In this document: one piece after another, positions 1,205-33,446 of the stretch
Layout of the letters: every line of letters starts with the position of its first letter
Numbering within the stretch: the stretch's first letter is position 1
DNA from: Candidatus Heimdallarchaeota archaeon
GTDB lineage: Archaea; Asgardarchaeota; Heimdallarchaeia; Heimdallarchaeales; Heimdallarchaeaceae
Direction of reading: 5' to 3'
DNA: 43,848 nucleotides
NCBI GenBank assembly: GCA_016840095.1
Contig: JAEOSZ010000034.1
Location: 1-43,848, forward strand
Position numbers and translations under genes: made by a program
The notes under the pieces: generated by a model
The model's input: the letters and a program-made list of their open reading frames with translations, nothing else
Told to the model about the DNA's origin: nothing
The model's database searches: none

Positions 1205-1243
1205 TTTAACAAACCTATTGGAAGACTTTCTTCCAGTTATTTT

Positions 1244-2053
1244 TTACTTTTCTAACCCATAAGCTTGTTCAATTAATTCAGCTAGTCTCGCTACAAATCT
1301 AGTAGCGGGACCACCATCAACAATATTGTGGTCAATTTGGATAGTAAGGTTCAAAAACTCGTGTTCTACCATTTTACCCGCAGATATTACTGGTTTGTTT
1401 TTTATTCCACCTATAGCAATATTCATAGTATTACTAGGAAAAGGAATACCCCATCCAGCTATGTTTTTTCCAAACATTCCTAATGCAGTGACACCAATTG
1501 TTCCAGCATTTTCTAAAAAGAATTTAGTATTTGTCAGTTTTCTTTTAACAACAATCTTCCTAGCGAACTTAGGAATAAGTGAATAGATTTTCATGAAGAA
1601 TTTTGGGGTTCCTTCAACTAATTGATTTCCCTCTTCCACTTCTATTTCTTGAGCTTCCCTTATTTCATTAGTGATTTCTTGTACAGTTTTTGTATTGGCA
1701 AATTTAATGAGATAATTAATAGGTACTTTCTTTCCAGATCGGGTCGTACGCTCAACCATTGTTCTAACATGAGCATTATCAAAGATTATCAGTTTGTTTT
1801 TTTTGGTCCTAAATGCATGAACTTCTTTGTGTTCACTTACTGCTTGGGCAATACATTTTATTATCCAACCTGTAAATGATAATCTGCTTCCAGTTTGTTT
1901 TTCATATTGTTTGATCCTTTTTCTGGCTTTATCTACATCTAGTTCGACTAAACCAACCATTGATGTTCGTTTAGTAGTTATCTCATAGACCTCTGTTAAT
2001 GCTTGCCGAATCTTTGAAAACTCTTTTAGTTCATAATTGCCAAATTCCTTCAT
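1244..2053 (-). CDS. Stand-alone 2-oxoacid dehydrogenase E2 acyltransferase catalytic domain protein (CAT-like fold)
   Basis: LSFTGWIIKCIAQAVSEHKEVHA, GTIGVTALG and the DHNIVDGG (HxxxDG) catalytic motif; no lipoyl domain. Confidence 0.85.
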   Translation of the reverse strand: MKEFGNYELKEFSKIRQALTEVYEITTKRTSMVGLVELDVDKARKRIKQYEKQTGSRLSFTGWIIKCIAQAVSEHKEVHAFRTKKNKLIIFDNAHVRTMVERTTRSGKKVPINYLIKFANTKTVQEITNEIREAQEIEVEEGNQLVEGTPKFFMKIYSLIPKFARKIVVKRKLTNTKFFLENAGTIGVTALGMFGKNIAGWGIPFPSNTMNIAIGGIKNKPVISAGKMVEHEFLNLTIQIDHNIVDGGPATRFVARLAELIEQAYGLEK

Positions 2054-2333
2054 TAGTTCAATTCCTTTCCTTATTAAGAATAAAACACTATGTTGAATTA
2101 AAATTTTTGTTCTTTCAAAATAAAAACAAGCCTTTATTAGTTGATCTTACACTGATTTAATCAAAACAGGGGAGTTAATTTGAAAAAGAAAACTGAAAGA
2201 CAGAGACGAATAATCTCATAACAAAATAGAATTTTACCGAATGCTAATTCTAGTCAAAGAAGGAAAAGATTTAGTTATAAAGTGAATGCTAACATTTTTT
2301 AATACTTTCAGCTTATTTTTCTATTGAGGGAAA

Positions 2334-2636
2334 ATGGAAAAATATATTTATTGTAATCAATGTAACGCTAAGAATGATTCTTTTAATGAATTCTGTACTG
2401 AATGTGGAAAAAGAATTGATGATTCTACTGCTGGTTCTCATACTGTGTATACTAATAATACTAGAGAACGTGTGATGTCTGGTTCTTTTGATGCATTACC
2501 TGGAGCTCCTAAATATGGAAAGGAAAGAAATAAGACGAAAAATATTCTCAGTATACTTGCTGTTCTAATATTTGGTGCAGTTGCTGCTATTGTATTTTGG
2601 CAAGTTTATGAAAATGTTGTAAATAACTTTCCTTAA
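2334..2636 (+). CDS. Zinc-ribbon protein with a C-terminal transmembrane helix
   Basis: CNQC...FCTECG; hydrophobic ILSILAVLIFGAVAAIVFW. Confidence 0.75.
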   Translation: MEKYIYCNQCNAKNDSFNEFCTECGKRIDDSTAGSHTVYTNNTRERVMSGSFDALPGAPKYGKERNKTKNILSILAVLIFGAVAAIVFWQVYENVVNNFP

Positions 2637-2666
2637 CCTGAAGCTCCATATCTCTTTGGAATAATC

Positions 2667-3008
2667 TCAACTTACTCCTTCTGCAAGAAGCTCTCCTATT
2701 GTATCTGCTGTCATGCTAAAAAAAGAAACGAGATCTTCTCTAGAGTGTAAGAGATCATATAGGTTCTTCATAGGTAAGTCTCGTCCATAGTCATCTACAA
2801 AAACAATTTCATATCCCAACCCTTTACCAAGGTTGCTTTGTTCCTTTAACCACTCTCTTTGTTCCTCAAAGAAGTTCTGCAGGAAATCCTTGACATTAGT
2901 GATGTTGCTCAATTTATATCTAGTTAATTCCAGTTTCTTTTCCTTATCTTCTGCATAGATTTTGAATACCATTTTCCAAGTCAAATCAAACACCCAAATG
3001 AGTTTCAT
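2667..3008 (-). CDS. Hypothetical protein, possibly beta-grasp fold
   Basis: 113-aa ORF filling the gap between neighbours; no firm family match. Confidence 0.6.
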   Translation of the reverse strand: MKLIWVFDLTWKMVFKIYAEDKEKKLELTRYKLSNITNVKDFLQNFFEEQREWLKEQSNLGKGLGYEIVFVDDYGRDLPMKNLYDLLHSREDLVSFFSMTADTIGELLAEGVS

Positions 3009-3158
3009 CTACTTATATAGCATTTAGTATATAAAGCGATGAATTACTTTCTCGAGTTTAAATATGAATCTATACGGATTTTCATTCTTGTATGAACGAA
3101 AAACTATAAGTTTTTAAACACACCATCGACCTCTAGAGTAGACAAGAAAGGTGATTAA

Positions 3159-3341
3159 ATGGGTCACGGTTCGCTCCAAAAAGCAGGAAAAGTTAGAAAA
3201 CAAACTCCCAAAGTTGAAGGAAAAGTAAGACACAGTCCTATTCCAAGAAGGGGCTTAAGAAATAAATACGTTAAACGAGTTATTCTAGGTCGTTTTCCAG
3301 GTCAAGCTCAGAGTATGGGAGCTAAGCGTCGTTCCAGATAA
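3159..3341 (+). CDS. rps30e: 30S ribosomal protein S30e
   Basis: HGSLQKAGKVRKQTPKV signature; AGGTGA SD immediately upstream. Confidence 0.97.
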   Translation: MGHGSLQKAGKVRKQTPKVEGKVRHSPIPRRGLRNKYVKRVILGRFPGQAQSMGAKRRSR

Positions 3342-3373
3342 CATTTTCTATTTATTTTATAGATTGTTTTCAA

Positions 3374-4963
3374 ATGAATATTCGTGATAGAGCTCTATTT
3401 GAAATTAAAGAAAAACTACTATTTTTAGATGAACCTAATAAGAAAATTCTAGATCAAGTTAAACGTGATGTTGCTAAAAAGTATAAACTCAAAGATTTTC
3501 CTAAGAATAGCGAGATTCTAGCTATTTGTGATATTGAGGAGAGAGATTTACTCCTACCGATACTTATGAAGAGGATTGTGCGAACACTATCTGGAGTTGC
3601 AGTTATAGCAGCAATGACCCGTCCTTGGGAATGCCCCCATGGGAAATGCATAATGTGTCCAGGAGGTCCAGATATTGAACGACCTCAGAGCTATACCGGT
3701 TATGAACCTACAACAATGAGGGGTATACGAAACAATTTCGACCCATATCTTCAGGTTATTGACAGAATTAAACAACTTGAGTCTATTGGACATTCAACAG
3801 AGAAAATTGATGCAATTATAATGGGTGGAACTTTCACTAACCAACCCACTGAATATCAGCAATGGTTTATTCAAAGAATGTTTGATGCCTTTAATGAAGT
3901 TGACTCAAAAGATATTCATAAAGCCCATGAAATAAACGAAACAGCTGTTCATAGATGTATAGGTTTGACAGCTGAGACAAGACCTGATCAGATTAATCAA
4001 GAGAAAATTAATCACCTTATTGATTATGGAGTTACTAGATTAGAAGTTGGAGTTCAATCAGTTTTTGACGATGTTCTAGAAAAAATGCAACGTGGTCATG
4101 GAGTAAAAGAGACAACTGAAGCTTTTCAATTCATCAAAGATTCCGGACTCAAAATTACTGCTCACATGATGCCTGGATTACCTGGTTCAACAATAGATAG
4201 AGATATTGAATCTTTCAAGATTTTGTTCAATGATTCTAGATTTCGTCCAGATGAACTAAAAATCTATCCTACAATGGTTATACCTGGAACAAAATTATTT
4301 GACGACTATCAAAATGGTGATTATTCGCCTCTTACAAATGAATCAGCTGCACGATTGATAGCGAAGATAAAAGAATTTGTACCTCCTTATGTTAGAATTA
4401 AGAGGGTTCTTAGAGATATTCCAGCTCATCAAATAGCAGCTGGTCCGAATAAAAGTGATTTGAGATTAGATGTTCAAGCTATTCTTGAAAAAGAAGGGAA
4501 GAAATGTCAGTGTATTCGATGTAGAGAAGTGGGGCATTTAATTTACAAGAAGAATATGCAGATAGATCAGAACAAAATTGAATTAATTGAGAGATCATAT
4601 GAAGCAAGTGGCGGTGTAGATCATTTTCTGTCTTTTGAAGAGACTGAAAACAATGCTTTAATTGGATTTTTGAGATTAAGAGAACTGAGTGAAAATATAA
4701 TTCGTCCAGAGTTTGATAATTCGACAATTGTTGTTAGGGAATTACATGTCTATGGAGAACTTCTTGGATTGAGAGCATTGAAGAAGAGTTATCTCCAGTG
4801 GCAGCATAAAGGTTACGGAAAGGAACTTATGTCAAGAGCTGAAGAAATTGGAAGAGAAAGAGGTAATGCAAAAATCTCAGTAATATCAGGTGTTGGAGTA
4901 AGAGAATATTATCAAAAGCAAGGCTACTCGAAAGATGGTCCTTACATGTCGAAAAAATTGTGA
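3374..4963 (+). CDS. elp3: tRNA uridine(34) acetyltransferase Elp3 (radical SAM + GNAT)
   Basis: RTLSGVAVIA, CPHGKCIMCPGG, QSYTGYEP, ETRPD, KIYPT, RELHVYG, QHKGYG, ISGVGVREYY. Confidence 0.97.
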   Translation: MNIRDRALFEIKEKLLFLDEPNKKILDQVKRDVAKKYKLKDFPKNSEILAICDIEERDLLLPILMKRIVRTLSGVAVIAAMTRPWECPHGKCIMCPGGPDIERPQSYTGYEPTTMRGIRNNFDPYLQVIDRIKQLESIGHSTEKIDAIIMGGTFTNQPTEYQQWFIQRMFDAFNEVDSKDIHKAHEINETAVHRCIGLTAETRPDQINQEKINHLIDYGVTRLEVGVQSVFDDVLEKMQRGHGVKETTEAFQFIKDSGLKITAHMMPGLPGSTIDRDIESFKILFNDSRFRPDELKIYPTMVIPGTKLFDDYQNGDYSPLTNESAARLIAKIKEFVPPYVRIKRVLRDIPAHQIAAGPNKSDLRLDVQAILEKEGKKCQCIRCREVGHLIYKKNMQIDQNKIELIERSYEASGGVDHFLSFEETENNALIGFLRLRELSENIIRPEFDNSTIVVRELHVYGELLGLRALKKSYLQWQHKGYGKELMSRAEEIGRERGNAKISVISGVGVREYYQKQGYSKDGPYMSKKL

Positions 4964-8089: not shown

Positions 8090-8368
8090 TTATGCTAAAG
8101 CAATAATCCTTTCCTTACTTTGAGTTATTAGATCCTTTAGATTGTTATCCATTTCAGGGTTTAGTCCAATTAAAGAAGATCTCATGTCTTCAAAATTAGC
8201 TCTGTTAACAAGAACGGTTCTTTCTAATAACTGTCTTACAGTATATCTAATTGCTCGTGGCTTGGTTTCTATTAAGCTGTCAATTATCTCTTTTTGGGTT
8301 AGTGCTCCCTTATCCTCTAATAATTCAATTACTTCAACTGATCCTTTTGGTAGTCTTTCCCTTTTCAT
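8090..8368 (-). CDS. Small winged-helix (MarR/ArsR-like) DNA-binding protein
   Basis: VIELLEDKGALTQKEII...PRAIRYTVRQLLE...DMR; start moved to ATG 8368 because a GTGAT SD-like motif lies upstream. Confidence 0.8.
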   Translation of the reverse strand: MKRERLPKGSVEVIELLEDKGALTQKEIIDSLIETKPRAIRYTVRQLLERTVLVNRANFEDMRSSLIGLNPEMDNNLKDLITQSKERIIALA

Positions 8369-8501
8369 TCCAATCACTTTCTTTGAGCGTATGTGTAAAT
8401 TTTTTCCACATGTGTATATATTTTGCACAGTATTTAAACCTTTCGGAAAACGCTGTGTAAATGCTTACACACTTGAAATGGAAAAAGTGAGAGAAGAAAG
8501 A

Positions 8502-11408
8502 TTATGTCGGCATTTTTCTAAATCGATGTCTGATTATAGGAATCATGACAATTGAAATTATGACAAAGGCAAGAACCCAATTAACAATCGTTCTTATTGT
8601 ATCTAGTTGATTCCAGAACAAAACATCTACAAAGAATTCAATACGACCATCTGAAGGAGTATAACCTGTGAATCTTAGTGGAATATACAAAGTATGTACT
8701 CCATACTCATCGAATGTAAATTCAATATTGTATTTGCCAGTTGTAACATTATATTCTATTTCAAGATGTTCAAAAGTATGATTAGGATATAGCAAAGTTG
8801 CATTAAGTTTATTATTTTCACTTATGTAAGAGCTGCCGTTTCTAAAATAAACTTCTACATCTAAAGATAGTTGTTTTCTGATAAGCACTCTTTCAGGAAT
8901 ACTTTCTATAAGTAACTCTGGTCTATGTGTATCTATAAGCCAATTGAATGTTTCATTCACTAATTGGGAGTTTTTCTCATCCAGACCAAAAATGTCTTTA
9001 TAAGAATGATCCAATCCAGCTCTAGAAGGTTTTTCTTCATAGGAATCAGATAACAATCCATGATCAGTAAATGGGTAACCCGAACCGAAAACCATTACCC
9101 TTCCACTGTAATACTCTTTTGCTAAAGCTGCATTGAACGTATACTTCTCTTTATCTATTACCGTCTCAAAAGTTGCTAAAACGCTATTGTTTACATTTGG
9201 ATTATCATTAAAACCAACAGGTCTACCCCAGAACATGAAGGAATCTACTTCTAGGATATTGTTTGTTAGATCAACTTGAGCTTCATATGGAACATAATCA
9301 ATAGGTATATTCTCTCCAACACTTGCATTAAACATTCCAAGTAGCTCATCACAAGCATAATAGTTACTAGAAATTAAAGGTTCATTATCAATTGATGTTG
9401 CATCAATAAACCTGATACTATCAATTAGAAATAGGAGAGAACCTCCTCCTTGAACAAAACTATGAATATTATCTAATTCGCTTGATGTAAAATTGAGTTC
9501 TGGATCAGAGATAACTAAAATATCTACTCCTGTAAATGAATAATTACCTTGAAAATGATTGCGTATTCTAAATCCTCTATCTTTCAATATTCGGGTTAGA
9601 TAAGTATGTGTTCCTACAGAAGAAGAAGCATCGAACCATCTATTTTCGGTGTCATTCTCATGTGAGTTATCAAAAAGGATTGTGCCTCCCAGGTATCTCG
9701 TTTGAATTGAGATACTCATTGAAGTGGTTATTCCATCCGTATTCTCAAAAGAAATCGCTGTAATTATTTCTCTCATCGGTGTATCAAGAGGAATTGTGAT
9801 ATTGAAAGCAAAATGGTTCCATCCTGAATAAACAACAATCTGATCTGGTATTTTAATAAACTGTGAATCCCCAATAATAGAAGTATTAATCTGTCCATCA
9901 AATGATGAAATAAGTTTTATGAAAAATTCAGAAGTTTCTCCTTCTACACAAGAATAGAAGTACTCATTTTCAGGAGAGATTCTTTTAGGTAATATTGTAA
10001 AGAGGTCATTAGTACGATAGTTTTCTAGATAATTATATGCAGCTAAAGGATTAATCATTCCATTACCTTGATAGATAATTGGAAAGTTCATATCGATTGC
10101 AGTTTCTAAGATAGCAGCTTCATATTTGTGAGTACTAAGTCCTGGAAAAGCTCCAACTAATAAAGCAAAAACTCCAGCAACAATTGGAGCAGAAACAGAA
10201 GTACCTGATACCCATCTTGATCCTCCTGTTGTAGCATCACTACCCTGTATTGCCACCCCAGGAGCTAATATATCTATTCCTGCAGAGAAATTTCTGTTTA
10301 AACCTTTAGAAGTAAAAATTGCTAAATCATTCATATATTCTGAAGCACCCACAGAGATAACATGATCCCAAATCGCAGGTGCACCAATAGAAGCTCCTGA
10401 AGGACCATAGTTTCCTGCAGATGCAATAACAGGAATATTTTGTCTAGCAGCTTCATAGATTAGTTCTTCAATAGGATCTCCCATAGCTGCAAAAGTAACT
10501 GAGGTTAAGCTTGCAGAAATCAAGTGGGGACCATATAGAATTGCTTCATCAAAACCAATAATAAGCCATTCATCTTTACCGTAACCAGTTTTATCGAGAA
10601 CCTTGATATTGTATAACTTAGCATCAGGTGCAATCCCATAATTATCAGTTATCTCTACTATGCCATCAGCATTTCTATATTTACCGTTGCCAGCCAATAT
10701 TGATGCTATATGAGTCCCATGACCACTCAAGTCATCAGAATCTTCAACAGCTGGAATTAGATTAACATCAATAGCAATTTTATCTTCTTCAGGATAATTT
10801 CTTAATTTATCTAGAGATGGAGCTACAGAGAAATTCAAACCACTGTCTAAAATTGCAATATTGACCCCATAACCTGTAAAATTAGCATTATGAATTGCAT
10901 CTATTTCAAGTGCTTGACGAAGAACACTGAGATCTACAGAACCAGAAAAATCCATATCAACGTTCTGAGGAATGTGAAAGTCATATGTCCCAATAGGGTA
11001 TGTATATTTCACTCTAAAATCTAAGAAATTCAATTGGTGTAGAGCCATCTCTGTATATGAAAAAGAAACAGCAGGTATCGATTTGAAAATTCTATCAATT
11101 GATATGTCATATTTGATGGAATCCTCAATAAATAAGTCTCTTTCTTCAAATGAGAAAAATGATATCATAACTCTCCCATTAAAATCCATCAAATCCTTGT
11201 ATATCTGATTCATAGTCATTGGAGCTATCCATCTTTGAGTCTCAAGAATATTACTAGCCTTTACTACAGAAAAACTAGCTTCGTTGGAATAATTAATTGA
11301 CTTGATTAGTGCAGGATTGTTAATGTGTGTAGATTTTGCTTGTATTAACATAGGTATTGGGAGAATAATAATTGAGACTAAAAAAAAGATGAATAGCTTA
11401 TTTCTCAT
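8502..11408 (-). CDS. Membrane-anchored S8 subtilisin-like serine protease with a GATase-like (DUF4350/ABC_transp_aux-type) domain
   Basis: Signal peptide; triad ILDSG / GHGTH / SGTSVSAP, oxyanion SAGN; ILFDNSH...ILVISDPE...FVQGGGSLL; C-terminal TM plus basic tail. Confidence 0.92.
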   Translation of the reverse strand: MRNKLFIFFLVSIIILPIPMLIQAKSTHINNPALIKSINYSNEASFSVVKASNILETQRWIAPMTMNQIYKDLMDFNGRVMISFFSFEERDLFIEDSIKYDISIDRIFKSIPAVSFSYTEMALHQLNFLDFRVKYTYPIGTYDFHIPQNVDMDFSGSVDLSVLRQALEIDAIHNANFTGYGVNIAILDSGLNFSVAPSLDKLRNYPEEDKIAIDVNLIPAVEDSDDLSGHGTHIASILAGNGKYRNADGIVEITDNYGIAPDAKLYNIKVLDKTGYGKDEWLIIGFDEAILYGPHLISASLTSVTFAAMGDPIEELIYEAARQNIPVIASAGNYGPSGASIGAPAIWDHVISVGASEYMNDLAIFTSKGLNRNFSAGIDILAPGVAIQGSDATTGGSRWVSGTSVSAPIVAGVFALLVGAFPGLSTHKYEAAILETAIDMNFPIIYQGNGMINPLAAYNYLENYRTNDLFTILPKRISPENEYFYSCVEGETSEFFIKLISSFDGQINTSIIGDSQFIKIPDQIVVYSGWNHFAFNITIPLDTPMREIITAISFENTDGITTSMSISIQTRYLGGTILFDNSHENDTENRWFDASSSVGTHTYLTRILKDRGFRIRNHFQGNYSFTGVDILVISDPELNFTSSELDNIHSFVQGGGSLLFLIDSIRFIDATSIDNEPLISSNYYACDELLGMFNASVGENIPIDYVPYEAQVDLTNNILEVDSFMFWGRPVGFNDNPNVNNSVLATFETVIDKEKYTFNAALAKEYYSGRVMVFGSGYPFTDHGLLSDSYEEKPSRAGLDHSYKDIFGLDEKNSQLVNETFNWLIDTHRPELLIESIPERVLIRKQLSLDVEVYFRNGSSYISENNKLNATLLYPNHTFEHLEIEYNVTTGKYNIEFTFDEYGVHTLYIPLRFTGYTPSDGRIEFFVDVLFWNQLDTIRTIVNWVLAFVIISIVMIPIIRHRFRKMPT

Positions 11409-15250: not shown

Positions 15251-15928
15251 ATGAATAACCAGGATGATATTATAGTTGGAATTGATGAAGCTGGAAGAGG
15301 ACCAGTAATAGGTCCTTTGGTAATCTGTGCTTATGCTTTACCAAGAAAAGATTTGGATCAACTAAGAAAACACAGAGTAAAGGATTCAAAAACACTGTCG
15401 AAGAAAAGAAGATTTGAGTTATATGCAGTACTAGTTTCAATTGCTACTGATTTTCAAACCAAACATCTCTCTGCTGCTGAAATTGATGAATTAAGAAAGA
15501 ATTATACACTGAATGTTATTGAACAAAAAATGATGTTAAAACTGGCTAAAAAAATTAAACCTACTCCTTCAGAGATTTACATTGATGCTGCTGACGTTAA
15601 TGAAAAACGATTTGGAAAGGTGTTTGAAACAGAATTTCCTAAAGCTAAGATAGTATCTAAACATAAAGCAGACATACTATTTCCTATTGTTTCTGCAGCA
15701 TCAATTATAGCAAAGAAACAGAGGGATGATGAAATAGCTAAATTATCAGAAAAAATTGGAGAAAATATAGGTTCAGGGTATCCAGCAGATCCAATCACTA
15801 AGAAGTTTTTGAATAACTATTATAGAAAGCACAAGAAATTCCCTCCATATGTTAGAGAATCGTGGGATACAGCTAAGAAAATAAAAAAGGAATTAAGTGA
15901 AACAAAAAAACTATCTGACTATTTCTAA
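15251..15928 (+). CDS. rnhB: Ribonuclease HII
   Basis: GIDEAGRGPVIGPLV, DSK, IDA, HKAD, VSAASIIAK, GSGYPAD. Confidence 0.97.
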   Translation: MNNQDDIIVGIDEAGRGPVIGPLVICAYALPRKDLDQLRKHRVKDSKTLSKKRRFELYAVLVSIATDFQTKHLSAAEIDELRKNYTLNVIEQKMMLKLAKKIKPTPSEIYIDAADVNEKRFGKVFETEFPKAKIVSKHKADILFPIVSAASIIAKKQRDDEIAKLSEKIGENIGSGYPADPITKKFLNNYYRKHKKFPPYVRESWDTAKKIKKELSETKKLSDYF

Positions 15929-16578
15929 GCAGAAGTTTCTATATCATTTGTCTGCCTTCTTTTCTTGAAAATAAATGGTATAATTGCTCCTGTTACTAAA
16001 CCAATTGCATGTGCAAATAGATTGACGTTGGGACTTCCAAACGACATTATTAGGAAAAAGATTACTCCTGATGCAACATATCCCCAGAAAGATTTTGTCC
16101 TCTCATGCTGATACATCAATATAAGATCGGCACCTAGTAACCCAAATATTGCACCACTTGCTCCTGCAGAAATTGAAATTGGTCCATAAACAAAGGAGAG
16201 TATTCCTCCCATTAAACCGGAAATTATGAAAACAAAATAATACTGCCAAGATAACAAACGTTCTTCTGCTTTTAAACCGAACACAAGTAAAAATAGGCAG
16301 TTAGAAAGTAAGTGTAACAAATCTACATGAACAAAGATAGAGGTAATTAACTGATATACATGCCCCTGAAAAACAAGAAGATTAAATTGTCCTACAACAA
16401 CTAAAATATCATCTGAAATTGAAATTGCATCTCTAAAAGATACAATGTTTCCTTGGGTCAAAGTAATAATCCATAAAATTAAGTGAATTAGTAAAAGTAA
16501 TACTAAGATGTTTCGAGTAGGTAGATTTGTTTTCCAAAATGAGCTCATAGAAAAACTATCTTCTTCTTTGTTATTCAC
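15925..16578 (-). CDS. Rhomboid family intramembrane serine protease
   Basis: TSIFVH...HLLSN, GASGAIFG (catalytic Ser), AHAIG (catalytic His); multiple TM helices. Confidence 0.93.
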   Translation of the reverse strand: MNNKEEDSFSMSSFWKTNLPTRNILVLLLLIHLILWIITLTQGNIVSFRDAISISDDILVVVGQFNLLVFQGHVYQLITSIFVHVDLLHLLSNCLFLLVFGLKAEERLLSWQYYFVFIISGLMGGILSFVYGPISISAGASGAIFGLLGADLILMYQHERTKSFWGYVASGVIFFLIMSFGSPNVNLFAHAIGLVTGAIIPFIFKKRRQTNDIETSA

Positions 16579-18614: not shown

Positions 18615-19004
18615 TTAGCTAGGTATAAATTTGAATCCATATCCAATTAATCCTTCTTCTCCATTTTTTGATAGAATCCTGAATACTGTTTTGACCTTCA
18701 TCCCATACTTAAGATCTTCAATTTTAGTATCTGTAATTTGTCCTGTTACTCTAGTCCCATCATCCAATTCAATGAGACCTATGATGTATGGAGTGTTAAA
18801 CATCATTACATCAGCTGTTTGTGTCACTCTTGTGAAATGTAGAACCTTACCTGTTTGAGCAAGTTTGATCTCTTCAATATCGTTACTAGAACACTCTGGA
18901 CAAAAATCAGTAACTGGAAAACTCTTCATCTGACATTTATTGCACAAGATTCCTAGAGTAAGATATCTTTGTCTTCTTTCTCTCCATATTTTTGGTGGCT
19001 CCAT
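18615..19004 (-). CDS. DUF35 Zn-ribbon/OB-fold scaffold of the thiolase/HMG-CoA synthase complex
   Basis: CNKC...FP..FCPEC, PYIIGLIEL, GQITD, GMKV..VFR, YGFKF; operon context. Confidence 0.93.
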   Translation of the reverse strand: MEPPKIWRERRQRYLTLGILCNKCQMKSFPVTDFCPECSSNDIEEIKLAQTGKVLHFTRVTQTADVMMFNTPYIIGLIELDDGTRVTGQITDTKIEDLKYGMKVKTVFRILSKNGEEGLIGYGFKFIPS

Positions 19005-20185
19005 TAATTATCATCCTCCATATTAGAAAAAATATTCACCACTACATTGGCACCTGTTCCCATTACATTCTGCGTTAAACCAAATTTTGCTTCATCGACT
19101 TGTCGTTTGTCTGCCTCTCCATTGAGCTGCTGTACGATTTCTATTATTTGAGCAATACCTGTTGCACCGAAAGGATCACCTCTAGCTTTGAGACCCCCAC
19201 TTGTATTCACACTAATTTCAGAATTAGTTTGGGTTTTTCCTTCTGTAGTAGCATGACCTCCCTCTCCTTTTGGAAAGAATCCTAAATCTTCAATCGCTAG
19301 AATTTCCCCAATTGGGAAAGAGTCATGTACTTCTGCTAGACTAATATCTTCTGGAGATTTTTTTGCCATAGAATATGCTTTTTTTGCAGCAGCTTTTGTT
19401 GCTGAAAGAGATGTTAAGGTCTTTCTATGGTGTAAAGCTAGTTTATCTGAAGCTTGAGCTGATCCCACTACTTTGGTTTTAAGCTCTATTTCTGAATGTT
19501 TTCTAACAAATTCCTTAGAAGCAATAATTACTGCAGCACTTCCATCACAATGAGTTGCTGGATCAAATCTACCAATAGGGTCAGAGATTCTTTTGGCATT
19601 AAGGAATCTTTCTAATGAAATCTCTCTCCGATATTGAGCTATTGGATTATTCACACCATTCTTGTGGTTCTTAACTGGAACAGATGCTAATTGTTCTAAT
19701 GTTGTTTTATACTCCTTCATATGAGCCTGAGTCAACCAAGCATAGAGACTTGTCAGTGTTGCTCCTTGTTCAAATTCCCATTGATAATCAATAGTACCTC
19801 CAAGAATTTCTTCTATTGTGCTACTATCAACATAGTCACTAGTCTTTTCAGTACCAAGAACTACTATACAATCAAGAAGACCACTCTTCACAGCCAAATA
19901 AGCTTGATGAAATGCTCCTGCACCACTAGCATTTCCTAAATCAATTTTTGAAATTGTTACATCTAAGTTACACTCTCTAGCAGCTTCAGCTCCGATGAAA
20001 GATTGGAGATTACTGTTAGATAATAATGAACCAAAGTAAAGAGCTTGAATTGAATCTTTGCTTATTTTTGAGTTTTGAATTGCTGAAGTTATTGCTTTTG
20101 TTGCGCTAGAACTAGGCTTCGTACTATATTGTTCTCCAAACTTTGTTATTCCATATCCTATTATGAAAACATCACTGTTACTCAT
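19004..20185 (-). CDS. Archaeal SCP2-type thiolase homologue with substituted catalytic residues
   Basis: GITKFGE, KNHKNG..NP.AQ, DGSAAVI, EVHDSF, VNTSGGLKARGDPFGATG. Confidence 0.9.
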   Translation of the reverse strand: MSNSDVFIIGYGITKFGEQYSTKPSSSATKAITSAIQNSKISKDSIQALYFGSLLSNSNLQSFIGAEAARECNLDVTISKIDLGNASGAGAFHQAYLAVKSGLLDCIVVLGTEKTSDYVDSSTIEEILGGTIDYQWEFEQGATLTSLYAWLTQAHMKEYKTTLEQLASVPVKNHKNGVNNPIAQYRREISLERFLNAKRISDPIGRFDPATHCDGSAAVIIASKEFVRKHSEIELKTKVVGSAQASDKLALHHRKTLTSLSATKAAAKKAYSMAKKSPEDISLAEVHDSFPIGEILAIEDLGFFPKGEGGHATTEGKTQTNSEISVNTSGGLKARGDPFGATGIAQIIEIVQQLNGEADKRQVDEAKFGLTQNVMGTGANVVVNIFSNMEDDN

Positions 20186-20189
20186 TTGA

Positions 20190-21230
20190 TCACCTCAGAA
20201 TTCCTTTGTATCTAGAATAAACACCATAGCTAACTTCCTCCATATTATCAACGTAGTAATCCACTGTTAATGGATAAGTTTTGACACTTTCTATTTCATC
20301 AGTAACTAAGAATGAAAATGAATCACTACCGGCTCCACTGCCATAAGAAGTTATGAATACTCTATCGCCAGGGTTGGAATTATTCAGAATCGTTGATAAT
20401 CCTAACATTGATGAAGCAGAATATGCATTCCCAATTTTCTTACAAATAAGGCTGATATCAACTTGATCTACTGTAAATCCAAGCATCTTTGCTACTGCTA
20501 GTGGAAATTTAGTATTAGGTTGGTGGAATGTAGCAAATTTATAATCTGTTGGTTTAGTTCCGAGTTTCTCCATTAATCCTTTAGAAGCATCCACAATATG
20601 CTGAAAATATGCTGGTTGTCCAGTAAATCTGTTTCCATGAGATGGATATATAGCTCCTTCTCTTCTCCAGAAATCTGGTGTGTCAGTAGTTACTGAATAT
20701 GTACCTTCTAGTTCTGCAACAACTCTTTCTGAACCAATTAAAAATGCAGCACTTCCAGCACCAGCAGTATATTCAAGAGGATCTCTTGGTTTAGCTTGAC
20801 TGTCATCAGAACCTATTGCTAGCCCAAACTTGATCATATTAGATTTGACTAGACCAAAGCACATCTGCATCCCAGCTGTTCCTGCTTTGCATGCAAATTC
20901 CAAATCAGCAGCTGTTAATTCCTTTTCTGAATCTATTGCTGAAGCAACTATTGTTGCTGTAGGTTTAACTGCATAAGGATGCGATTCACTCCCAACATAA
21001 ATAGCTCCAATATCTTGAGGATCCCCCTTCCATCTTTTCAATGCATTTCTTGCAGCTTCGACCGACATCGTAGCTACATCTTCATCAGGCCCTAGTACTG
21101 ATTTAAACTGAACCTGCAATTGCGTTTTAATTTCATTTGGATCTTCACCCCATACCTTTGCTATTTCTTCAACAGCTATTCGGTATTTGGGGATATACGA
21201 ACCATAGGATACTATTCCTACTTTGCTCAT
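20190..21230 (-). CDS. Hydroxymethylglutaryl-CoA synthase (archaeal type)
   Basis: GSESHPYAVKP, DLEFACKAGT, DTPDFWRR, FHQPN, SYGSGAGSD; catalytic E/C/H intact. Confidence 0.96.
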   Translation of the reverse strand: MSKVGIVSYGSYIPKYRIAVEEIAKVWGEDPNEIKTQLQVQFKSVLGPDEDVATMSVEAARNALKRWKGDPQDIGAIYVGSESHPYAVKPTATIVASAIDSEKELTAADLEFACKAGTAGMQMCFGLVKSNMIKFGLAIGSDDSQAKPRDPLEYTAGAGSAAFLIGSERVVAELEGTYSVTTDTPDFWRREGAIYPSHGNRFTGQPAYFQHIVDASKGLMEKLGTKPTDYKFATFHQPNTKFPLAVAKMLGFTVDQVDISLICKKIGNAYSASSMLGLSTILNNSNPGDRVFITSYGSGAGSDSFSFLVTDEIESVKTYPLTVDYYVDNMEEVSYGVYSRYKGILR

Positions 21231-27077: not shown

Positions 27078-28690
27078 ACTAGCTCCTTCTTACGTTTATT
27101 CTTAATAATTGAATAGACGAGTATACAATAAAAAATTATCTGCTCAAAATGAAAAGGATATGGTGTTTCTGATATATTTTCGAATTCAGGCTTAGTTATA
27201 TTCTCTAGTACTGATTCAATATAATACTCGAAGTAGTAATAATTCCCTAAATCTACTTCTGGAGGATCATAAAATGAATGATACATTTCTTGAAACTCTA
27301 CCGCAAAGGATTGCAGCTGTCCATTGTCAGAATATGCTAGCCAGCCATTCATAAATACTGCTGTGTCTTGAACAAAAATCCTTGGGACAACAGTTTGAGT
27401 GTTATTAGATTGAAAATCAAAAGAAAATTCCCATATAAGATGGTGAAGATTTTCTTTTTGTTGATATTCTATTTGTAAATCTATTTCTCGAATGGTATAA
27501 AGAGAACTTGTTACTCCTGTCAAAGTGAATTGGAATCCATTGAATACTTCACTTAATTGGTTCCACAGAGTTTGTGCTAATAACGCTAATCCTGAATATC
27601 TATCCCATGTGGGGATTAAAGCTGGGGGTACTTGGGCAACCCATGAACCATGTATGGGTGTAGAAGTAAAATATGATTCAAGTAGAGCATTATAAACATA
27701 GAGTGTTTTTTGAAAATTTAAACCAGATTTAGTAAACAAATAGTGTAATCCTAATGTCTGATTGAGTTGATTTACCCATTCATCGAAATCTTCAAGCTGT
27801 TCTTGAGTAGAGTTTCTTTGTTGATAAATTTCATGGTTAGCATAGCTGTTAGTAATGAAGAAATCAGCTTGTGTTGAATCTAGTGGAGAAAGAATTTCCT
27901 CGTAATTTTCCAAAGCCATCACTAAGACACTACTCTTACCTTCATAGATAAGGTGAAGCGAGAGAGCTAGTAAAACACCACTAGTTTTGCTCCAGGTTGC
28001 TCTCATCGAAATAGCAGTATCCATATCAATATCCAATGATACTGTAAATTCTTCATCATCCTGGTTGTAAATATTGACAGAGAAAGATTCATCTAGAAGC
28101 AATGAAGCAAATTCAGCTTCAAATCTATCATAGTTGTCATCTAATATTATTGGCAAGAAATCTAAGTAATCAGCATCTTTAATCATTGCTCCAAAGTTTG
28201 GTCGAGTAATGTTTGCAAATATATTTGGTAATATTATTACTGTATCTTGTGGCAATACTGCTTGTATTGTTTCCTGTTCTATTGGTTCAAAATTGAAGCC
28301 TATGAAATCTGCTATAAAATCACTACCAGTGTTGATTTCAGCAGTTAGAGGTTCTTCAATTACCAAATAACTTTCTGTCAAGAATACTTCTTCTTGGGTA
28401 AGAATAAACTGATCTGATTCTATAAAGTAGATCTCTCTAAATTCAGAAATTCTATCTTTAAGAAGTATCTTAAAATTAGCATTTGAAAAAGATCCTTCTA
28501 AATTGAAACCTAAGTTCTGGAACATATTTTCAAGATTTTCACCTTGTGCAATCTTATAGTTGAGAAGATATCCTTTATCATCAAAACTAGCATCTCTAAA
28601 GTCTATACTATTTTCTGCTTCTGTTCTTGAAAAAGATAGACTAAGAACGAAGAGAATCAATGCTAGTGATAATATCTTCTTATTTCTCAT
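27074..28690 (-). CDS. Secreted, C-terminally anchored cell-surface protein
   Basis: Signal peptide MRNKKILSLALILF...; C-terminal ETPYPF + hydrophobic helix + KNKRKK. Confidence 0.75.
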   Translation of the reverse strand: MRNKKILSLALILFVLSLSFSRTEAENSIDFRDASFDDKGYLLNYKIAQGENLENMFQNLGFNLEGSFSNANFKILLKDRISEFREIYFIESDQFILTQEEVFLTESYLVIEEPLTAEINTGSDFIADFIGFNFEPIEQETIQAVLPQDTVIILPNIFANITRPNFGAMIKDADYLDFLPIILDDNYDRFEAEFASLLLDESFSVNIYNQDDEEFTVSLDIDMDTAISMRATWSKTSGVLLALSLHLIYEGKSSVLVMALENYEEILSPLDSTQADFFITNSYANHEIYQQRNSTQEQLEDFDEWVNQLNQTLGLHYLFTKSGLNFQKTLYVYNALLESYFTSTPIHGSWVAQVPPALIPTWDRYSGLALLAQTLWNQLSEVFNGFQFTLTGVTSSLYTIREIDLQIEYQQKENLHHLIWEFSFDFQSNNTQTVVPRIFVQDTAVFMNGWLAYSDNGQLQSFAVEFQEMYHSFYDPPEVDLGNYYYFEYYIESVLENITKPEFENISETPYPFHFEQIIFYCILVYSIIKNKRKKELV

Positions 28691-31604
28691 TTTTGGTTCC
28701 TCTCTTTTTCTTCTTCTTATCTCCTTTGAAAGTTATTACAATTGCAGGAGGGACAATGAATAATCTAGAAACAAACACATCGATTAAGATACCTATTCCC
28801 AATCCTAGACCCAGCTGTTTCATGTGGATAGATGATGTAAACAACAAGCTAAAATATGTAGCTGCCATAATAATTCCTGCAACAGATATATTATTCATTG
28901 TTTGATCTACGGCATCTACAATTGCTTTTTCTGAATCCTTAACATTAGTGTAGATGTCTTGAAAAATACCTAGAAAAAGCACATCAAAATCTAGTCCTAA
29001 AGCAGTTAAAACTGCATAAGCTAGTAATGGTACTATCCAGTATACTGATCCTCCTAAGAATAGGAAACTGAATAAACTGAACAATCCTAAGCTTATCCCA
29101 AGTGAGAGAAGTATAGTAATTAGAACCCTAACGGACATGAAGAATTTTCTAAGAAATAAAAATAACAACAGTGTAATAGTAAGAGATACAAACATGAAGA
29201 TAAGATTGAAATCTCGGGAAATTCCTGTTTTTGAATCATATAAGACTGGTGCAAAACCTGTTGCATATACAACCCACTCTGGGATATCTCTTTGTTCAAT
29301 TATATCTGAAATCATCGTTCTAATTGTTTTGATTTGATCATCTAGTTTCTTGTCTCCTTCTGTAAAAGAAGAACCACAATATACAATTGCATATGTTTCA
29401 TCTGGGAAAACGAAATTCTTCATAAGAATATGGATTTCCTCTGTGATAAACAGAGAATTGTTAACAAGAGTATCTTCGTATGGTTTACCCATAGGATGAC
29501 TTATACCTGCTAGTACCGTGATATTCGTTGCAATCGTTATTGCTTCAATGATAAATAGAACTTCATTAATAGAATCAAAATTCAAACTTCCATTACTTAG
29601 AATAAATGGATCCAAATCTGTTGTTTTGAAAAGCAAAGAGATTTGACTAATATATTCAACTCCCATATGTTGATTTATGGCATCTAATCCCTGTTTAGAT
29701 TGATATGCTTGTGGGGCTGAAGAAATTTGAGCATAATCTGTAGGAACTGCTAGAAAAACTCCTAATCCTATAAGGGAGATTATAACTGAAGCAATCAAAA
29801 CCTTCTTAGGTTTCTTGACTGCTTTTCTAACATATTTCATGAGAGTACCTCTTCTCTTCTTGAGAATCTTAATATTAATTTTCCATTTTGATAATATATT
29901 TTGATTAAGCAAAATCAATATCGAAGGAACTAGTGTTAGTGAAACAACCATACTTGTTAAGAAACCTATTATTCCACTTATTCCCATACCTGTTGCTAAA
30001 GCAAAACTGCTTAGAACTAACCCCCCAAAACCAAATGACAAGGACACGGAAGCTATAATTATGCTCTTGGAGGTGCGTCTAAGTGTAGTTCTGATTGCAC
30101 CATATTTTGTTTCAGTCTTCTTCAGATTTAAGAGGTAATCTCCTATGAGAAATACACAATAATCTGTTGTTGCCCCTAGGAGAGTTACACTTAGAATAAT
30201 AAGACTCGTGGAATCTAATCCTCCTGTTATGGTTCCAAATCCTATGAATAAGAGTCTTGAAACAGCAAAAGCAATTGCTAGAACTGAGAGTTGAATAAGC
30301 GGTAAGATAGGTGATCTATAAACTAATAGTAGAATAATTACAATTGTTATTATGACTATCAAATCGGTTCTCTTTGCTTGAATTTGATAATCTAATGAGA
30401 TTTCAACAATGAAGAAATCAATGCCTGTACAATGAATTTCTAAAGGCAGATTTACCTCTTTTATCTGTGGGAGAATATTTAGCAGTTCAAGATAAGCTTC
30501 CTTCCCTTCTACATTCAAGTGATTGAGTGCCATGTTAAAAGTAACTAATGTAGTATCAGCATCTCCAATTTCCTCTTTGAAATTTGTATACTGTTTAAGA
30601 AAAATCATAATAATATCATCTGTTATTGGAGGTATAGATGTCGTCATTGTTAATACTGGAATAAGATATTTATTTTTAGCATCAATGAAACCTTGTATAT
30701 TCCCATCATCATACACTTCCTCAACAAAATCTACTTCTGCTGAGTTATTCGTCCCATAGAGAAATTCAGCTGTTTTTTCGTAAGAGTATGTGGTATTTTG
30801 CCATTTGCTTGAATTGAAGTTATTAGAGAGCAATGTTAGAAGTTCTGTTTGTCTAACGTCCGCTGATACCTCGGAAATAAATGAAGAATTAGAATTGATT
30901 ATGTTACTTAACAGGTTGAGAACATCTGTCTCATTAGAAGGTAAAGTTAAGCTAGCAAAATGATTAAAACTCTTCGAAATTTCTTGGTAAAAAACATCTA
31001 CAAACTCAATATATCTTGATTCATTGAAAGATGTTAAAAGAGAATCTAAGTAGTTTTCAGTTAGAGTTTTAGTAATAGTAGTTGCTAATGGAATGTCACC
31101 TGTGCTATTATACTGATCCAACCAGATTGTACTGAAATATTGGATGCCACCCCAAACATAATGTATTGATGCAAAGGATAATTGTGTTGCATACCATTGG
31201 AGACTTAGAATTGTTCTAAGGAGATTATCTGCATCATCATACAACGATGAATAGGGTTTGCTTGATGATAAAAATGGACCGATTTTTGGGTTGTGCGTTA
31301 TATTGTAAATTAAACTTGATACTTTTTGATACATGGATTCAGATATCGTAGTACCATTAGGATTATGAATTATGATTTGAAACGAACTATTTGTTTCACT
31401 GAAAGAAGATAAAATTTCTGTACCGATCGTAGATTCAGATTTTCTAGTAGTAGACAGATTATCTCCTTCATCAGTTACGTAATCAGAAACATTGAGTATT
31501 TTGTTAATATTTATTGAAACAAGCAATATCCAAAATAGAATAATTGCTGAAGCAACGATTTTAGGTCTCTTCCAGAGCTTATCCCAAATTTTCAAATTAC
31601 TCAA
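28680..31604 (-). CDS. MMPL family (RND superfamily) transporter
   Basis: Two RND repeats with large extracytoplasmic loops; LLLVYRS, GATTDY, GLDFD, AGIIMA, DVFVSRLFIVP. Confidence 0.9.
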   Translation of the reverse strand: MSNLKIWDKLWKRPKIVASAIILFWILLVSININKILNVSDYVTDEGDNLSTTRKSESTIGTEILSSFSETNSSFQIIIHNPNGTTISESMYQKVSSLIYNITHNPKIGPFLSSSKPYSSLYDDADNLLRTILSLQWYATQLSFASIHYVWGGIQYFSTIWLDQYNSTGDIPLATTITKTLTENYLDSLLTSFNESRYIEFVDVFYQEISKSFNHFASLTLPSNETDVLNLLSNIINSNSSFISEVSADVRQTELLTLLSNNFNSSKWQNTTYSYEKTAEFLYGTNNSAEVDFVEEVYDDGNIQGFIDAKNKYLIPVLTMTTSIPPITDDIIMIFLKQYTNFKEEIGDADTTLVTFNMALNHLNVEGKEAYLELLNILPQIKEVNLPLEIHCTGIDFFIVEISLDYQIQAKRTDLIVIITIVIILLLVYRSPILPLIQLSVLAIAFAVSRLLFIGFGTITGGLDSTSLIILSVTLLGATTDYCVFLIGDYLLNLKKTETKYGAIRTTLRRTSKSIIIASVSLSFGFGGLVLSSFALATGMGISGIIGFLTSMVVSLTLVPSILILLNQNILSKWKINIKILKKRRGTLMKYVRKAVKKPKKVLIASVIISLIGLGVFLAVPTDYAQISSAPQAYQSKQGLDAINQHMGVEYISQISLLFKTTDLDPFILSNGSLNFDSINEVLFIIEAITIATNITVLAGISHPMGKPYEDTLVNNSLFITEEIHILMKNFVFPDETYAIVYCGSSFTEGDKKLDDQIKTIRTMISDIIEQRDIPEWVVYATGFAPVLYDSKTGISRDFNLIFMFVSLTITLLLFLFLRKFFMSVRVLITILLSLGISLGLFSLFSFLFLGGSVYWIVPLLAYAVLTALGLDFDVLFLGIFQDIYTNVKDSEKAIVDAVDQTMNNISVAGIIMAATYFSLLFTSSIHMKQLGLGLGIGILIDVFVSRLFIVPPAIVITFKGDKKKKKRGTKNEK

Positions 31605-32678: not shown

Positions 32679-33446
32679 ATGTCAAGCGGTCTAACAATAA
32701 AAGATATTTTCAAAGTTGATGGTTCTGGAGTACCATATCTAAAAATCGTAATTTATGGTCCTTCATTAGCTGGAAAAACAAGTATGCTAACAGTGTACAA
32801 TGTTCTAAGAAAAGTTGAGGATCCTGAAACAATTTATTCTTCCTTGAAGAAAATTGACGATCCTAGTGGAAGAACTATTTTTTATGATCAGAGCACTTTT
32901 GAACTGCCAAAGGGACAAGGTGTAAGTGTTCCTAAACTGCGATACCAAGTTTGGACAGTTGCTGGTCAGAAAAGACATTATATACAAAGAAAAGTTGTTC
33001 TTGAAGGTGCTGATGGGTTGATATTCATGTTCGATCCTAGCAAAAACATGTGGGAAGATAATGTTGAAAGTCTTACAGAGCTCATTGCACTTAAAGGAGA
33101 TGTCTTAGGAAAATCTCTACCATTCTTGATTGTTCTAAATAAGATTGATCTTCCAGCAGAAGAACGTACTCCAACAGATAAGTTTCTAGATTTATTAATT
33201 GAGAAAAAACTTTCCAACAATAAAGGTGATGCTTACATGAGAGTAGTTGAAACATCATGTCTTCAAGCTCGAAATGAGTTAATGACTCTATTGAGGAGTC
33301 CTGATATTAAATCAAAATTAGATGAATATGGACGACTTAAGAAAGGAGCTAGACCTTTAAGTGTTCAAAAAACTGCTCAACCTATTGAGCAAATAACTAG
33401 AGAAATTGTTATTCATAGAGTCAAGTCTGCCAAAACTGAAGATTAA
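32679..33446 (+). CDS. MglA-like small GTPase
   Basis: G1 KIVIYGPSLAGKTS, G2 GRTIFYD, G3 WTVAGQ, GADGLIFMFD, G4 NKID. Confidence 0.88.
   Translation: MSSGLTIKDIFKVDGSGVPYLKIVIYGPSLAGKTSMLTVYNVLRKVEDPETIYSSLKKIDDPSGRTIFYDQSTFELPKGQGVSVPKLRYQVWTVAGQKRHYIQRKVVLEGADGLIFMFDPSKNMWEDNVESLTELIALKGDVLGKSLPFLIVLNKIDLPAEERTPTDKFLDLLIEKKLSNNKGDAYMRVVETSCLQARNELMTLLRSPDIKSKLDEYGRLKKGARPLSVQKTAQPIEQITREIVIHRVKSAKTED

Follow-up and report, generated by a model that had tools for sequence, protein, structure and literature searches.

A 43,848-nucleotide stretch of DNA from Candidatus Heimdallarchaeota archaeon (positions 1 to 43,848 of contig JAEOSZ010000034.1, assembly GCA_016840095.1; here called the window) carries on its reverse strand a gene for a 968-residue subtilase, P0001, that resembles eukaryotic site-1 protease (S1P; also known as SKI-1 or MBTPS1) in domain order and, as modelled, in the packing of three of its domains. 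The gene is flanked by genes for fibrillarin, Nop5, a 112-residue winged-helix-like protein, S8e, SRP19 and Gar1, and the G+C content is about 0.32-0.35 across the whole window. None of 7 sequencing runs matched to the stretch is an RNA run; two DNA runs contain most of it, and one of these may be its source.

The protease and its domains

The features of the gene and its product are as follows.

8502..11408, reverse strand: whole open reading frame (P0001), 968 residues plus stop, ATG start; from the open reading frame list and its translation
11337..11408, reverse strand: signal-peptide-like segment, residues 1-24, with a basic start, a hydrophobic core and ...IQA; read from the sequence; helix 4-22 in the model at low confidence
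10959..11267, reverse strand: I9-like inhibitory/chaperone prodomain, residues 48-150; beta-alpha-beta-beta-alpha-beta in the model, with propeptide alignments
10005..10937, reverse strand: peptidase S8 catalytic domain, residues 158-468; PF00082 match and subtilisin superposition
10845..10847, reverse strand: catalytic Asp188
10719..10721, reverse strand: catalytic His230
10410..10412, reverse strand: oxyanion-hole Asn333
10197..10199, reverse strand: catalytic Ser404, within VSGTSVSAP
9693..10001, reverse strand: first beta-sandwich, residues 470-572, at the position of the S1P 'P-like' domain; from the model
8919..9692, reverse strand: GIFT (GATase1-like) domain, residues 573-830, without a catalytic Cys; from profile, fold and Pfam matches below cut-off
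8619..8918, reverse strand: second beta-sandwich (putative stalk), residues 831-930; from the model, aligning together with the GIFT domain and transmembrane helix to OST48 45-451
8532..8597, reverse strand: transmembrane helix, residues 938-959; hydrophobic stretch, with a model helix at 935-962
8505..8531, reverse strand: basic, predicted cytoplasmic tail RHRFRKMPT, residues 960-968; from the sequence, with R.RFRK kept in the window's own family

The initial annotation had read a signal peptide, a prodomain, an S8 domain, an Ig-like sandwich, a GATase-like domain, a further beta domain, one transmembrane helix and a basic tail from this frame, and the sequence together with an AlphaFold2 model bears out that series. 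The motifs that it quoted are present in the translation: VSGTSVSAP at residues 400-408, YQGNG...AAYNYL at 446-461, ILFDNSH at 577-583, ILKDRGF at 606-612, ILVISDPELNFTSSELDNIHSFVQGGGSLLFLID at 631-664 and GRVMVFG at 768-774. The full-length model, built with a 46-row alignment as input, has a mean predicted local distance difference test score (pLDDT) of 85.9 and a predicted template-modelling score (pTM) of 0.83. It displays a hydrophobic N-terminal helix and a disordered linker, followed by the prodomain, S8 domain, sandwich, alpha/beta domain, second sandwich and C-terminal helix at the boundaries listed above. When the C-terminal 499 residues are modelled separately, the same domains appear (pLDDT 88.5). 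The predicted signal peptide, single C-terminal transmembrane helix and short basic tail give the protein, by sequence and model, the type I topology of S1P.

The features that define an S8 peptidase are present: the Asp-His-Ser triad in that order and the oxyanion Asn, within a subtilisin fold. Pfam Peptidase_S8 (PF00082) matches residues 180-437 with an E-value of 6.9e-39, and in VIA comparisons the modelled domain superposes on subtilisin BPN' with Z 38 and a root-mean-square deviation (rmsd) of 1.5 Å over 270 residues. Asp188, His230, Asn333 and Ser404 are unchanged in 46 of 46 aligned sequences, and therefore these enzymes should be active. The prodomain aligns in VIA with the propeptides of pro-subtilisin E (3whi_A, model residues 76-459) and pro-Tk-subtilisin. 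Similarly, the family profile aligns both prodomain and S8 domain (71-456) with residues 30-418 of Tk-SP from Thermococcus kodakarensis. On these grounds the gene product is predicted to be the zymogen of an S8 subtilase that should be catalytically competent. NCBIfam models give far-below-cut-off matches at most, such as mycosin with 113 bits against a cut-off of 279. The SGTSV motif was not taken as an S1P signature: only the window's own family has Val following the catalytic Ser, and order-level and other Asgard relatives have SGTSM or SGTSA.

Assignment of residues 573-830 to the GIFT clan is based on a GATase1-like alpha/beta fold that lacks the Cys-His-Glu triad and on recognition by GIFT-clan profiles. 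Three such Pfam models, ABC_transp_aux, DUF4350 and IFT52_GIFT, match residues 605-788 below cut-off, and the same three match 42-43 of the 46 family members. No conserved Cys is found in alignment A2, the 27-sequence profile of the C-terminal half; Asp580 and Asp635 are conserved residues of the domain.

Resemblance to site-1 protease and other GIFT proteins

In PMC11231238, S1P is described as a series of prodomains, S8 domain, 'P-like' sandwich (479-616), GIFT subdomain (617-998), transmembrane helix and tail. Reported there as unique among proprotein convertases, the GIFT subdomain is packed against two S8 loops (338-348 and 372-384) and has a stabilising effect on N338, the oxyanion Asn.

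Structural comparison of the full-length model points to S1P more than to any other solved protein. Foldseek against the PDB ranks human S1P first (9csd_A, E 1.8e-38, 716 columns of a 744-residue chain, template-modelling score 0.64) and second (8uw8_A, E 2.0e-37), with Tk-SP third (1.1e-27). In VIA, model residues 158-827 align with residues 190-873 of 8uw8_A, spanning S8, sandwich and GIFT (Z 42.4, rmsd 4.1 Å, 594 residues). The remaining VIA entries align at most 376 residues, and the Z margin of S1P is small because their Z scores of 36-40 come from the S8 domain, in some entries plus the prodomain or one sandwich; by aligned length S1P is about twofold larger. In the model, S8, sandwich and GIFT superpose on S1P as one body. 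As shown by modelling, the GIFT domain packs on S8 and the sandwich is wedged against S8 in the same relative placement as in S1P.

Sequence profiles follow the same path through the domains. The family profile A1 aligns with S1P in a single collinear stretch, 162-674 on 199-741, covering three domains with 224 bits. A profile of the sandwich and early GIFT region matches S1P 604-732 (E 0.0031) across the sandwich-GIFT junction, pairing riLfDishd with RVLWDQYHN and iLvIaDpelnyts with LLMVDSEEEYFP. Asp/His/Glu positions are thereby shared, LFD.SH with LWDQYH and DPE with DSEEE. Of the S1P motifs named in the initial annotation, VLWDQYH and LLMVDSEEEYFPEE are confirmed by this profile alignment, and SGTSVASP, EQGHG and GRIVLYG are unconfirmed. 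Twelve of the 46 aligned members have a match to Pfam MBTPS1_4th at E ≤ 1, the best of them with 2.2e-5. In the ESM Atlas, the nearest clusters to the whole protein are one from Thorarchaeota (0.96) and then nine of eukaryotic S1P (0.94), with bacterial S8 clusters at 0.88 or less.

P0001, as read from its sequence, and S1P (8UW8, 8UWC, 9CSD) have in common a signal peptide, a prodomain, an S8 domain, one C-terminal transmembrane helix and a short basic tail, and in the model of P0001 also a sandwich wedged on the S8 domain and a packed GIFT domain. They differ in several respects. Identity is about 18-21%, and the Asgard S8 domain is of the compact classical subtilisin type. The Asgard protein has a single I9-like prodomain, whereas S1P has a two-part A/B prodomain (PMC11231238), and it has an extra beta-sandwich between the GIFT domain and the membrane. 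No SPRING partner or RxxL-type site is recognised for the Asgard protein, and Pfam S1P-specific models are not reached. S1P works in the endoplasmic reticulum and Golgi, whereas the Asgard enzyme is predicted to lie at the archaeal cell surface. S1P is further characterised by autocleavage of its prodomain at RxxL/K-type sites, by cleavage of substrates after R-x-hydrophobic-L/K and by action on membrane-bound regulators upstream of S2P.

The C-terminal half taken by itself has more than one relative. Its profile matches PDB sequences of the IFT52 GIFT domain with an E-value of 1.2e-17, OST48 with 4.9e-5 (over the end of the GIFT domain and the second sandwich) and S1P with 0.0043. In Foldseek, OST48 takes the first, second and fourth places (E 2.2e-14 to 7.2e-13, 456-466 columns) and S1P the third and fifth (E 7.9e-14 and 1.0e-12); IFT52 has an E-value of 1.9e-8. 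A VIA search over 48,161 chains gives IFT52 for the GIFT domain only (Z 20.9, rmsd 2.6 Å, 196 residues), S1P for sandwich plus GIFT (Z 18.2, 309 residues, model 1-359 on chain 482-874), and OST48 for GIFT, second sandwich and transmembrane helix (Z 18.0, 346 residues, model 106-499 on chain 45-451). The initial annotation proposed the S1P domain plan and implied that the C-terminal domains should superimpose on S1P; the VIA alignments of the full model and of this half uphold both points. For residues 470-932, the named ESM Atlas clusters that come closest are those of third/fourth-domain proteins of plant S1P (0.82) and of OST48 (0.78), both below 0.9 and thus leads only.

Each of the other two relatives shares a portion of the protein. 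The N-terminal GIFT domain of IFT52 (5FMR, 5FMS, 8BD7) is the nearest solved GIFT relative by both sequence and fold, but IFT52 is a cytosolic intraflagellar-transport subunit without protease, sandwich or transmembrane helix, so that one domain is held in common. OST48/WBP1 (6S7O, 6S7T, 8B6L) has the order of GIFT domain, beta-sandwich, transmembrane helix and short tail seen in residues 575-968. It lacks a protease, and the rmsd of the Foldseek alignments is about 21 Å, which indicates that the domains are arranged differently. Moreover, OST48 Pfam models have no match to P0001 at E ≤ 1, and with a protease present the protein does not qualify as a member of the OST48/WBP1 family.

The tails at the C-terminal ends of the A2 rows (loci L031-L047) vary among subfamilies and are conserved inside each. 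The window's own family has the short R.RFRK; order-level relatives have 'W.W..NEGGR' beside the membrane; the L039-L044 group has 'EWE.P...PP.IE'; and L045/L046, with many forms of 1240-1340 residues, end in a zinc ribbon. This sequence pattern suggests that intracellular partners may differ from one subfamily to the next.

Distribution, paralogues and genomic neighbours

Of 5693 candidates in a search with residues 470-968, 44 proteins pass E ≤ 0.001, and almost every one of them is 940-1010 residues long. Their source-given names are always Heimdallarchaeota/Heimdallarchaeaceae or 'Asgard group', and database records label them 'S8 family serine peptidase'. The whole protein matches 358 of 400 same-phylum genomes at E ≤ 1e-10, a level for which the S8 domain alone is enough. 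All 30 other genomes of the window's own family (code f1 among the 400 Asgard genomes) have full-length matches with 39-83% identity. Other families of the order have matches of 27-32% identity that reach about residue 955.

Profile A2 attains E ≤ 1e-20 in 222 of the 400 genomes. At that threshold it is found, at least partly, in each family of the order and class and in 74 of 89 genomes of the last three family codes; it is found in only 27 of 135 genomes of f20 and in none of the 19 genomes of f12. The protease family is widespread, not universal, in Asgard archaea. More distant S8+GIFT relatives carry the names Odin-, Thor-, Hod-, 'Ran-' and 'Asgardarchaeia', and Heimdall- is also named in the family.

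The window's own genome has eight S8 open reading frames (nine matches), three of them with GIFT and a transmembrane helix. Seven reading frames match the C-terminal profile, and two of these are further S8+GIFT+transmembrane paralogues, which have long branches in a tree of S8 domains. For the first of them, S1P is missing from its 30 PDB matches at E ≤ 1e-20.

G000:C36, open reading frame 1096-4089, reverse strand: S8 + sandwich + GIFT + transmembrane paralogue L050, 998 residues
G000:C45: S8 + sandwich + GIFT + transmembrane paralogue L055/L061, at least 936 residues

Two other GIFT proteins of this genome have no S8 domain in their layout. L051 (G000:C95:15397-18942, open reading frame 703-2106, reverse strand; 468 residues) has no signal peptide. 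Its GIFT domain (A2 positions 131-322, E 5.3e-14) stands at the extreme N-terminus, and a long, charged tail of low complexity comes after it, an apparently cytosolic layout like that of IFT52. L052 (G000:C102:54042-57620, open reading frame 1357-2637, forward strand; 427 residues) begins with a hydrophobic segment, which is followed by a GIFT domain, a transmembrane helix and a cytoplasmic tail, and is about the size of OST48/WBP1.

The synteny of the protease gene is kept throughout f1, which is counted as a sign of vertical inheritance. The neighbours kept beside orthologues are S8e, SRP19, the small winged-helix-like gene and Nop5. At f1 loci, some of which end at a contig edge, S8e adjoins the orthologue in 25 of 29 and the winged-helix-like gene in 24 of 29; these neighbours occur at none of 18 loci of other families. 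The 112-residue winged-helix-like protein has no Pfam match at 1e-5 and no transmembrane segment. Other genes of the window named in connection with the protease are listed here with it.

8090..8428, reverse strand: 112-residue winged-helix-like gene, 74 nucleotides downstream of the protease gene; a neighbour, with no demonstrated functional link
15925..16578, reverse strand: rhomboid
18615..21230, reverse strand: thiolase/HMG-CoA-synthase-like/OB-fold trio
28680..31604, reverse strand: MMPL transporter

A TTG-started open reading frame of 137 residues at 8142..8555 on the forward strand, antisense to the winged-helix-like gene and the 3' end of the protease gene, is most likely a chance frame. 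The window also holds typical Asgard genes, a small Roc/Arf/Ras-like GTPase (32679..33446, forward strand) and an ELP3-like radical-SAM protein (3374..4963, forward strand).

Function and descent of the protease

We lean, with modest confidence, towards reading P0001 as a type I membrane-anchored, S1P-like selective processing protease whose shared descent with S1P is plausible but unproven. The protein would be exported by the Sec system via its N-terminal signal. The I9-like prodomain would fold, inhibit the S8 domain and then be removed autocatalytically. The mature enzyme would face outwards, anchored in the membrane by its C-terminal helix, with the short basic tail inside the cell and the extra second beta-sandwich possibly serving as a stalk. 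By analogy with S1P, the GIFT domain may brace the loops around the oxyanion-hole Asn and narrow access to the active site. Such restricted access would make the enzyme a selective processing or shedding protease for cell-surface proteins, rather than one for bulk digestion. Common descent with the S1P ectodomain is a plausible and the most economical reading of the three-domain arrangement seen in the model.

Several observations weigh against this reading, beginning with the catalytic domain. A single-sequence phmmer search gives nattokinase 7.1e-26 and S1P 1.4e-20, with the S8 part alone matching. Against the PDB, profile A1 scores 318 bits with Tk-SP and about 232 bits with subtilisin BPN', compared with 224 bits for S1P; Tk-SP and BPN' outscore S1P on the S8 part alone although the S1P match spans more domains. 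By sequence, then, the S8 domain has no special closeness to S1P. No RxxL/K-type motif is evident by reading the prodomain/S8 junction (residues 150-160). The GIFT domain is by profile far nearer to IFT52 than to S1P, and the E-value for S1P, 0.0043, would lack significance in a large database. MBTPS1_4th, the S1P-specific GATase-like model, has no match to P0001 at E ≤ 1, and the best score in the family, 24.5 bits, falls short of the model's 27-bit cut-off. When 19 members were scanned one at a time, none matched MBTPS1_3rd, the Ig-like model, which is also missing from the 25 of 38 Pfam families listed for all 46 members.

To these is added a second lineage of S8+GIFT proteins. GIFT domains abound: in a 1.84-billion library, the A2 search matched 6209 representatives at E ≤ 0.001, of which 105 passed E ≤ 1e-30. 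By length and Ser motif, none of the 150 matches listed looks like a eukaryotic S1P. P0089, P0092 and P0166 join S8 to GIFT together with CARDB, cohesin or dockerin modules, without a transmembrane anchor. P0092 reaches the MBTPS1_4th cut-off with 33.8 bits, and its S8 domain is thermitase-type (225 bits to AK.1 protease). A search of genome contigs for loci related to P0092 gave 22 pattern matches, none of them confirmed as a relative. A quick maximum-likelihood tree was made of 105 S8 domains (LG+G4; support from the Shimodaira-Hasegawa-like approximate likelihood ratio test, SH-aLRT, only; unrooted, drawn with a midpoint root). Of 106 rows gathered, own_C135 had too short a domain and was left out. 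P0089, P0092 and P0166 group with two GIFT-less S8 proteins of the window's own genome (SH-aLRT 96), and 96 of 99 other S8+GIFT rows fall across a branch of support 90 in the tree as drawn. The other three, R_P0129, R_P0112 and R_P0123, fall beside the thermitase-type group (support 90) without being resolved. These sequence data indicate that the union of S8 and GIFT, or its loss, took place repeatedly, which weakens the argument from same architecture to same descent. These proteins, like the prokaryotic GIFT, DUF4350 and ABC_transp_aux (GldG-type) proteins, share a GIFT-clan domain with P0001; they differ from it in a thermitase-type S8 that groups apart and in the missing C-terminal anchor. 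Of the two parts of the S1P relation suggested by the initial annotation, the domain plan stands; specific descent remains unproven, given S8 scores that favour Tk-SP and subtilisins and the presence of S8+GIFT on a thermitase-type S8 as well.

The same A2 search also reveals giant GIFT proteins of 3000-4000 residues (P0074, P0076, P0079, P0098 and P0105), each of which has 6-9 stretches resembling GIFT and finishes in '...RKMTLLK'. This ending resembles the sorting tails of type IX secretion.

A less likely alternative, though one to be taken seriously, is that P0001 is an ordinary cell-anchored digestive subtilase that harvests peptides from sediment protein. Its likeness to S1P would then stem from convergence or repeated joining of common modules (S8, Ig-like sandwich, GIFT and transmembrane anchor), and the GIFT domain would be a spacer or an envelope- or glycan-binding module. 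Tk-SP is a secreted degradative enzyme. Like P0001 it is archaeal, it is the top-scoring solved S8 protein for the family profile with prodomain and S8 aligned (3AFG, 9UES), and a beta-sandwich-type domain follows its S8 domain (9ues_B, Z 40.0, model 155-561). The S8 domain of P0001 is thus nearest to secreted degradative enzymes, with subtilisins next by score and BPN' superposing closely. The eight S8 reading frames of the genome, three with GIFT and a transmembrane helix, would fit a nutritional repertoire, and the abundance of GIFT domains and their occurrence on thermitase-type S8 proteins are consistent with repeated joining. Tk-SP matches end by model residue 561, and the aligned chains are without GIFT, second sandwich or transmembrane anchor. 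Against the digestive reading, the modelled rigid-body match to S1P extends over three domains and 594 residues, and the hidden Markov model alignment to S1P is collinear through the domain junctions. Likewise, retention of the orthologue at one syntenic site among housekeeping genes across f1 and conservation of tails inside subfamilies argue for more than a spacer-anchored digestive enzyme.

It is most unlikely that P0001 makes the first cut in S1P/S2P-type regulated intramembrane proteolysis, freeing a membrane-tethered regulator tied to lipid (mevalonate) control. The S1P topology is in keeping with such a role, as is a single S2P-family (Peptidase_M50) gene in the genome, which is 89% complete, but matches to that family occur in 14 of 14 control genomes, and its presence is therefore uninformative. 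The rhomboid, MMPL and thiolase/HMG-CoA-synthase-like genes, which the initial annotation linked loosely to SREBP-type lipid control, do exist in the same 44-kb window. The link itself has no support: they lie 4.5-20 kb off, with rRNA/tRNA-modification and ribosomal genes between, and their proximity is unkept at orthologues, where no lipid genes are among the kept neighbours. No membrane-tethered transcription factor was identified, and the adjacent winged-helix-like protein lacks a transmembrane segment. The description of the enzyme as a sheddase with SREBP-type signalling is similarly unsupported, the word sheddase having been drawn from topology only.

Less likely still is that the GIFT, sandwich and transmembrane half docks the protease to an archaeal oligosaccharyltransferase or translocon, as OST48/WBP1 does in oligosaccharyltransferase, and acts on newly exported glycoproteins: the OST48 matches of the C-terminal half and WBP1 homologues reported from Heimdallarchaeia (PMC10307638) fit this, but the domains are arranged differently, there is no sign of contact with AglB, and Pfam OST48_N, absent at E ≤ 0.01 from the window's own genome, is also absent from all 14 control genomes, which makes its absence here uninformative.

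If the selective processing protease that we favour is taken further, the Asgard family of transmembrane-anchored S8 + sandwich + GIFT proteins might represent the prokaryotic ancestor of S1P, and S1P would be a eukaryotic signature protein from the archaeal host, already a juxtamembrane processing protease with GIFT gating its active site. We regard this as a tentative and rather doubtful proposal. The GIFT set of the genome, which comprises protease-linked, GIFT + sandwich + transmembrane, and cytosolic N-terminal GIFT copies, could be the kind of source that supplied S1P, OST48/WBP1 and IFT52. In literature on Asgard archaea combined with S1P/MBTPS1, GIFT, SREBP or subtilisin, no Asgard counterpart of S1P was found, though supplementary tables could list the family. 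The available part of a 2017 MEROPS paper lists S8 merely as a universal family. The terms S1P, subtilisin, protease, GIFT and IFT52 are absent from the text of a 2026 preprint on Asgard-eukaryote structural clusters, whose supplementary tables could likewise list the family.

In eukaryotes S1P acts as gatekeeper protease of the SREBP and ATF6 pathways and of several more, and an S1P-like build in a protease of the Heimdall group hints at an archaeal root for it. If descent were confirmed, a secretory-pathway protease would join the archaeal inheritance of eukaryotes, and the Asgard enzyme would allow the control of a subtilase by its GIFT domain to be studied in a simple, SPRING-free setting.

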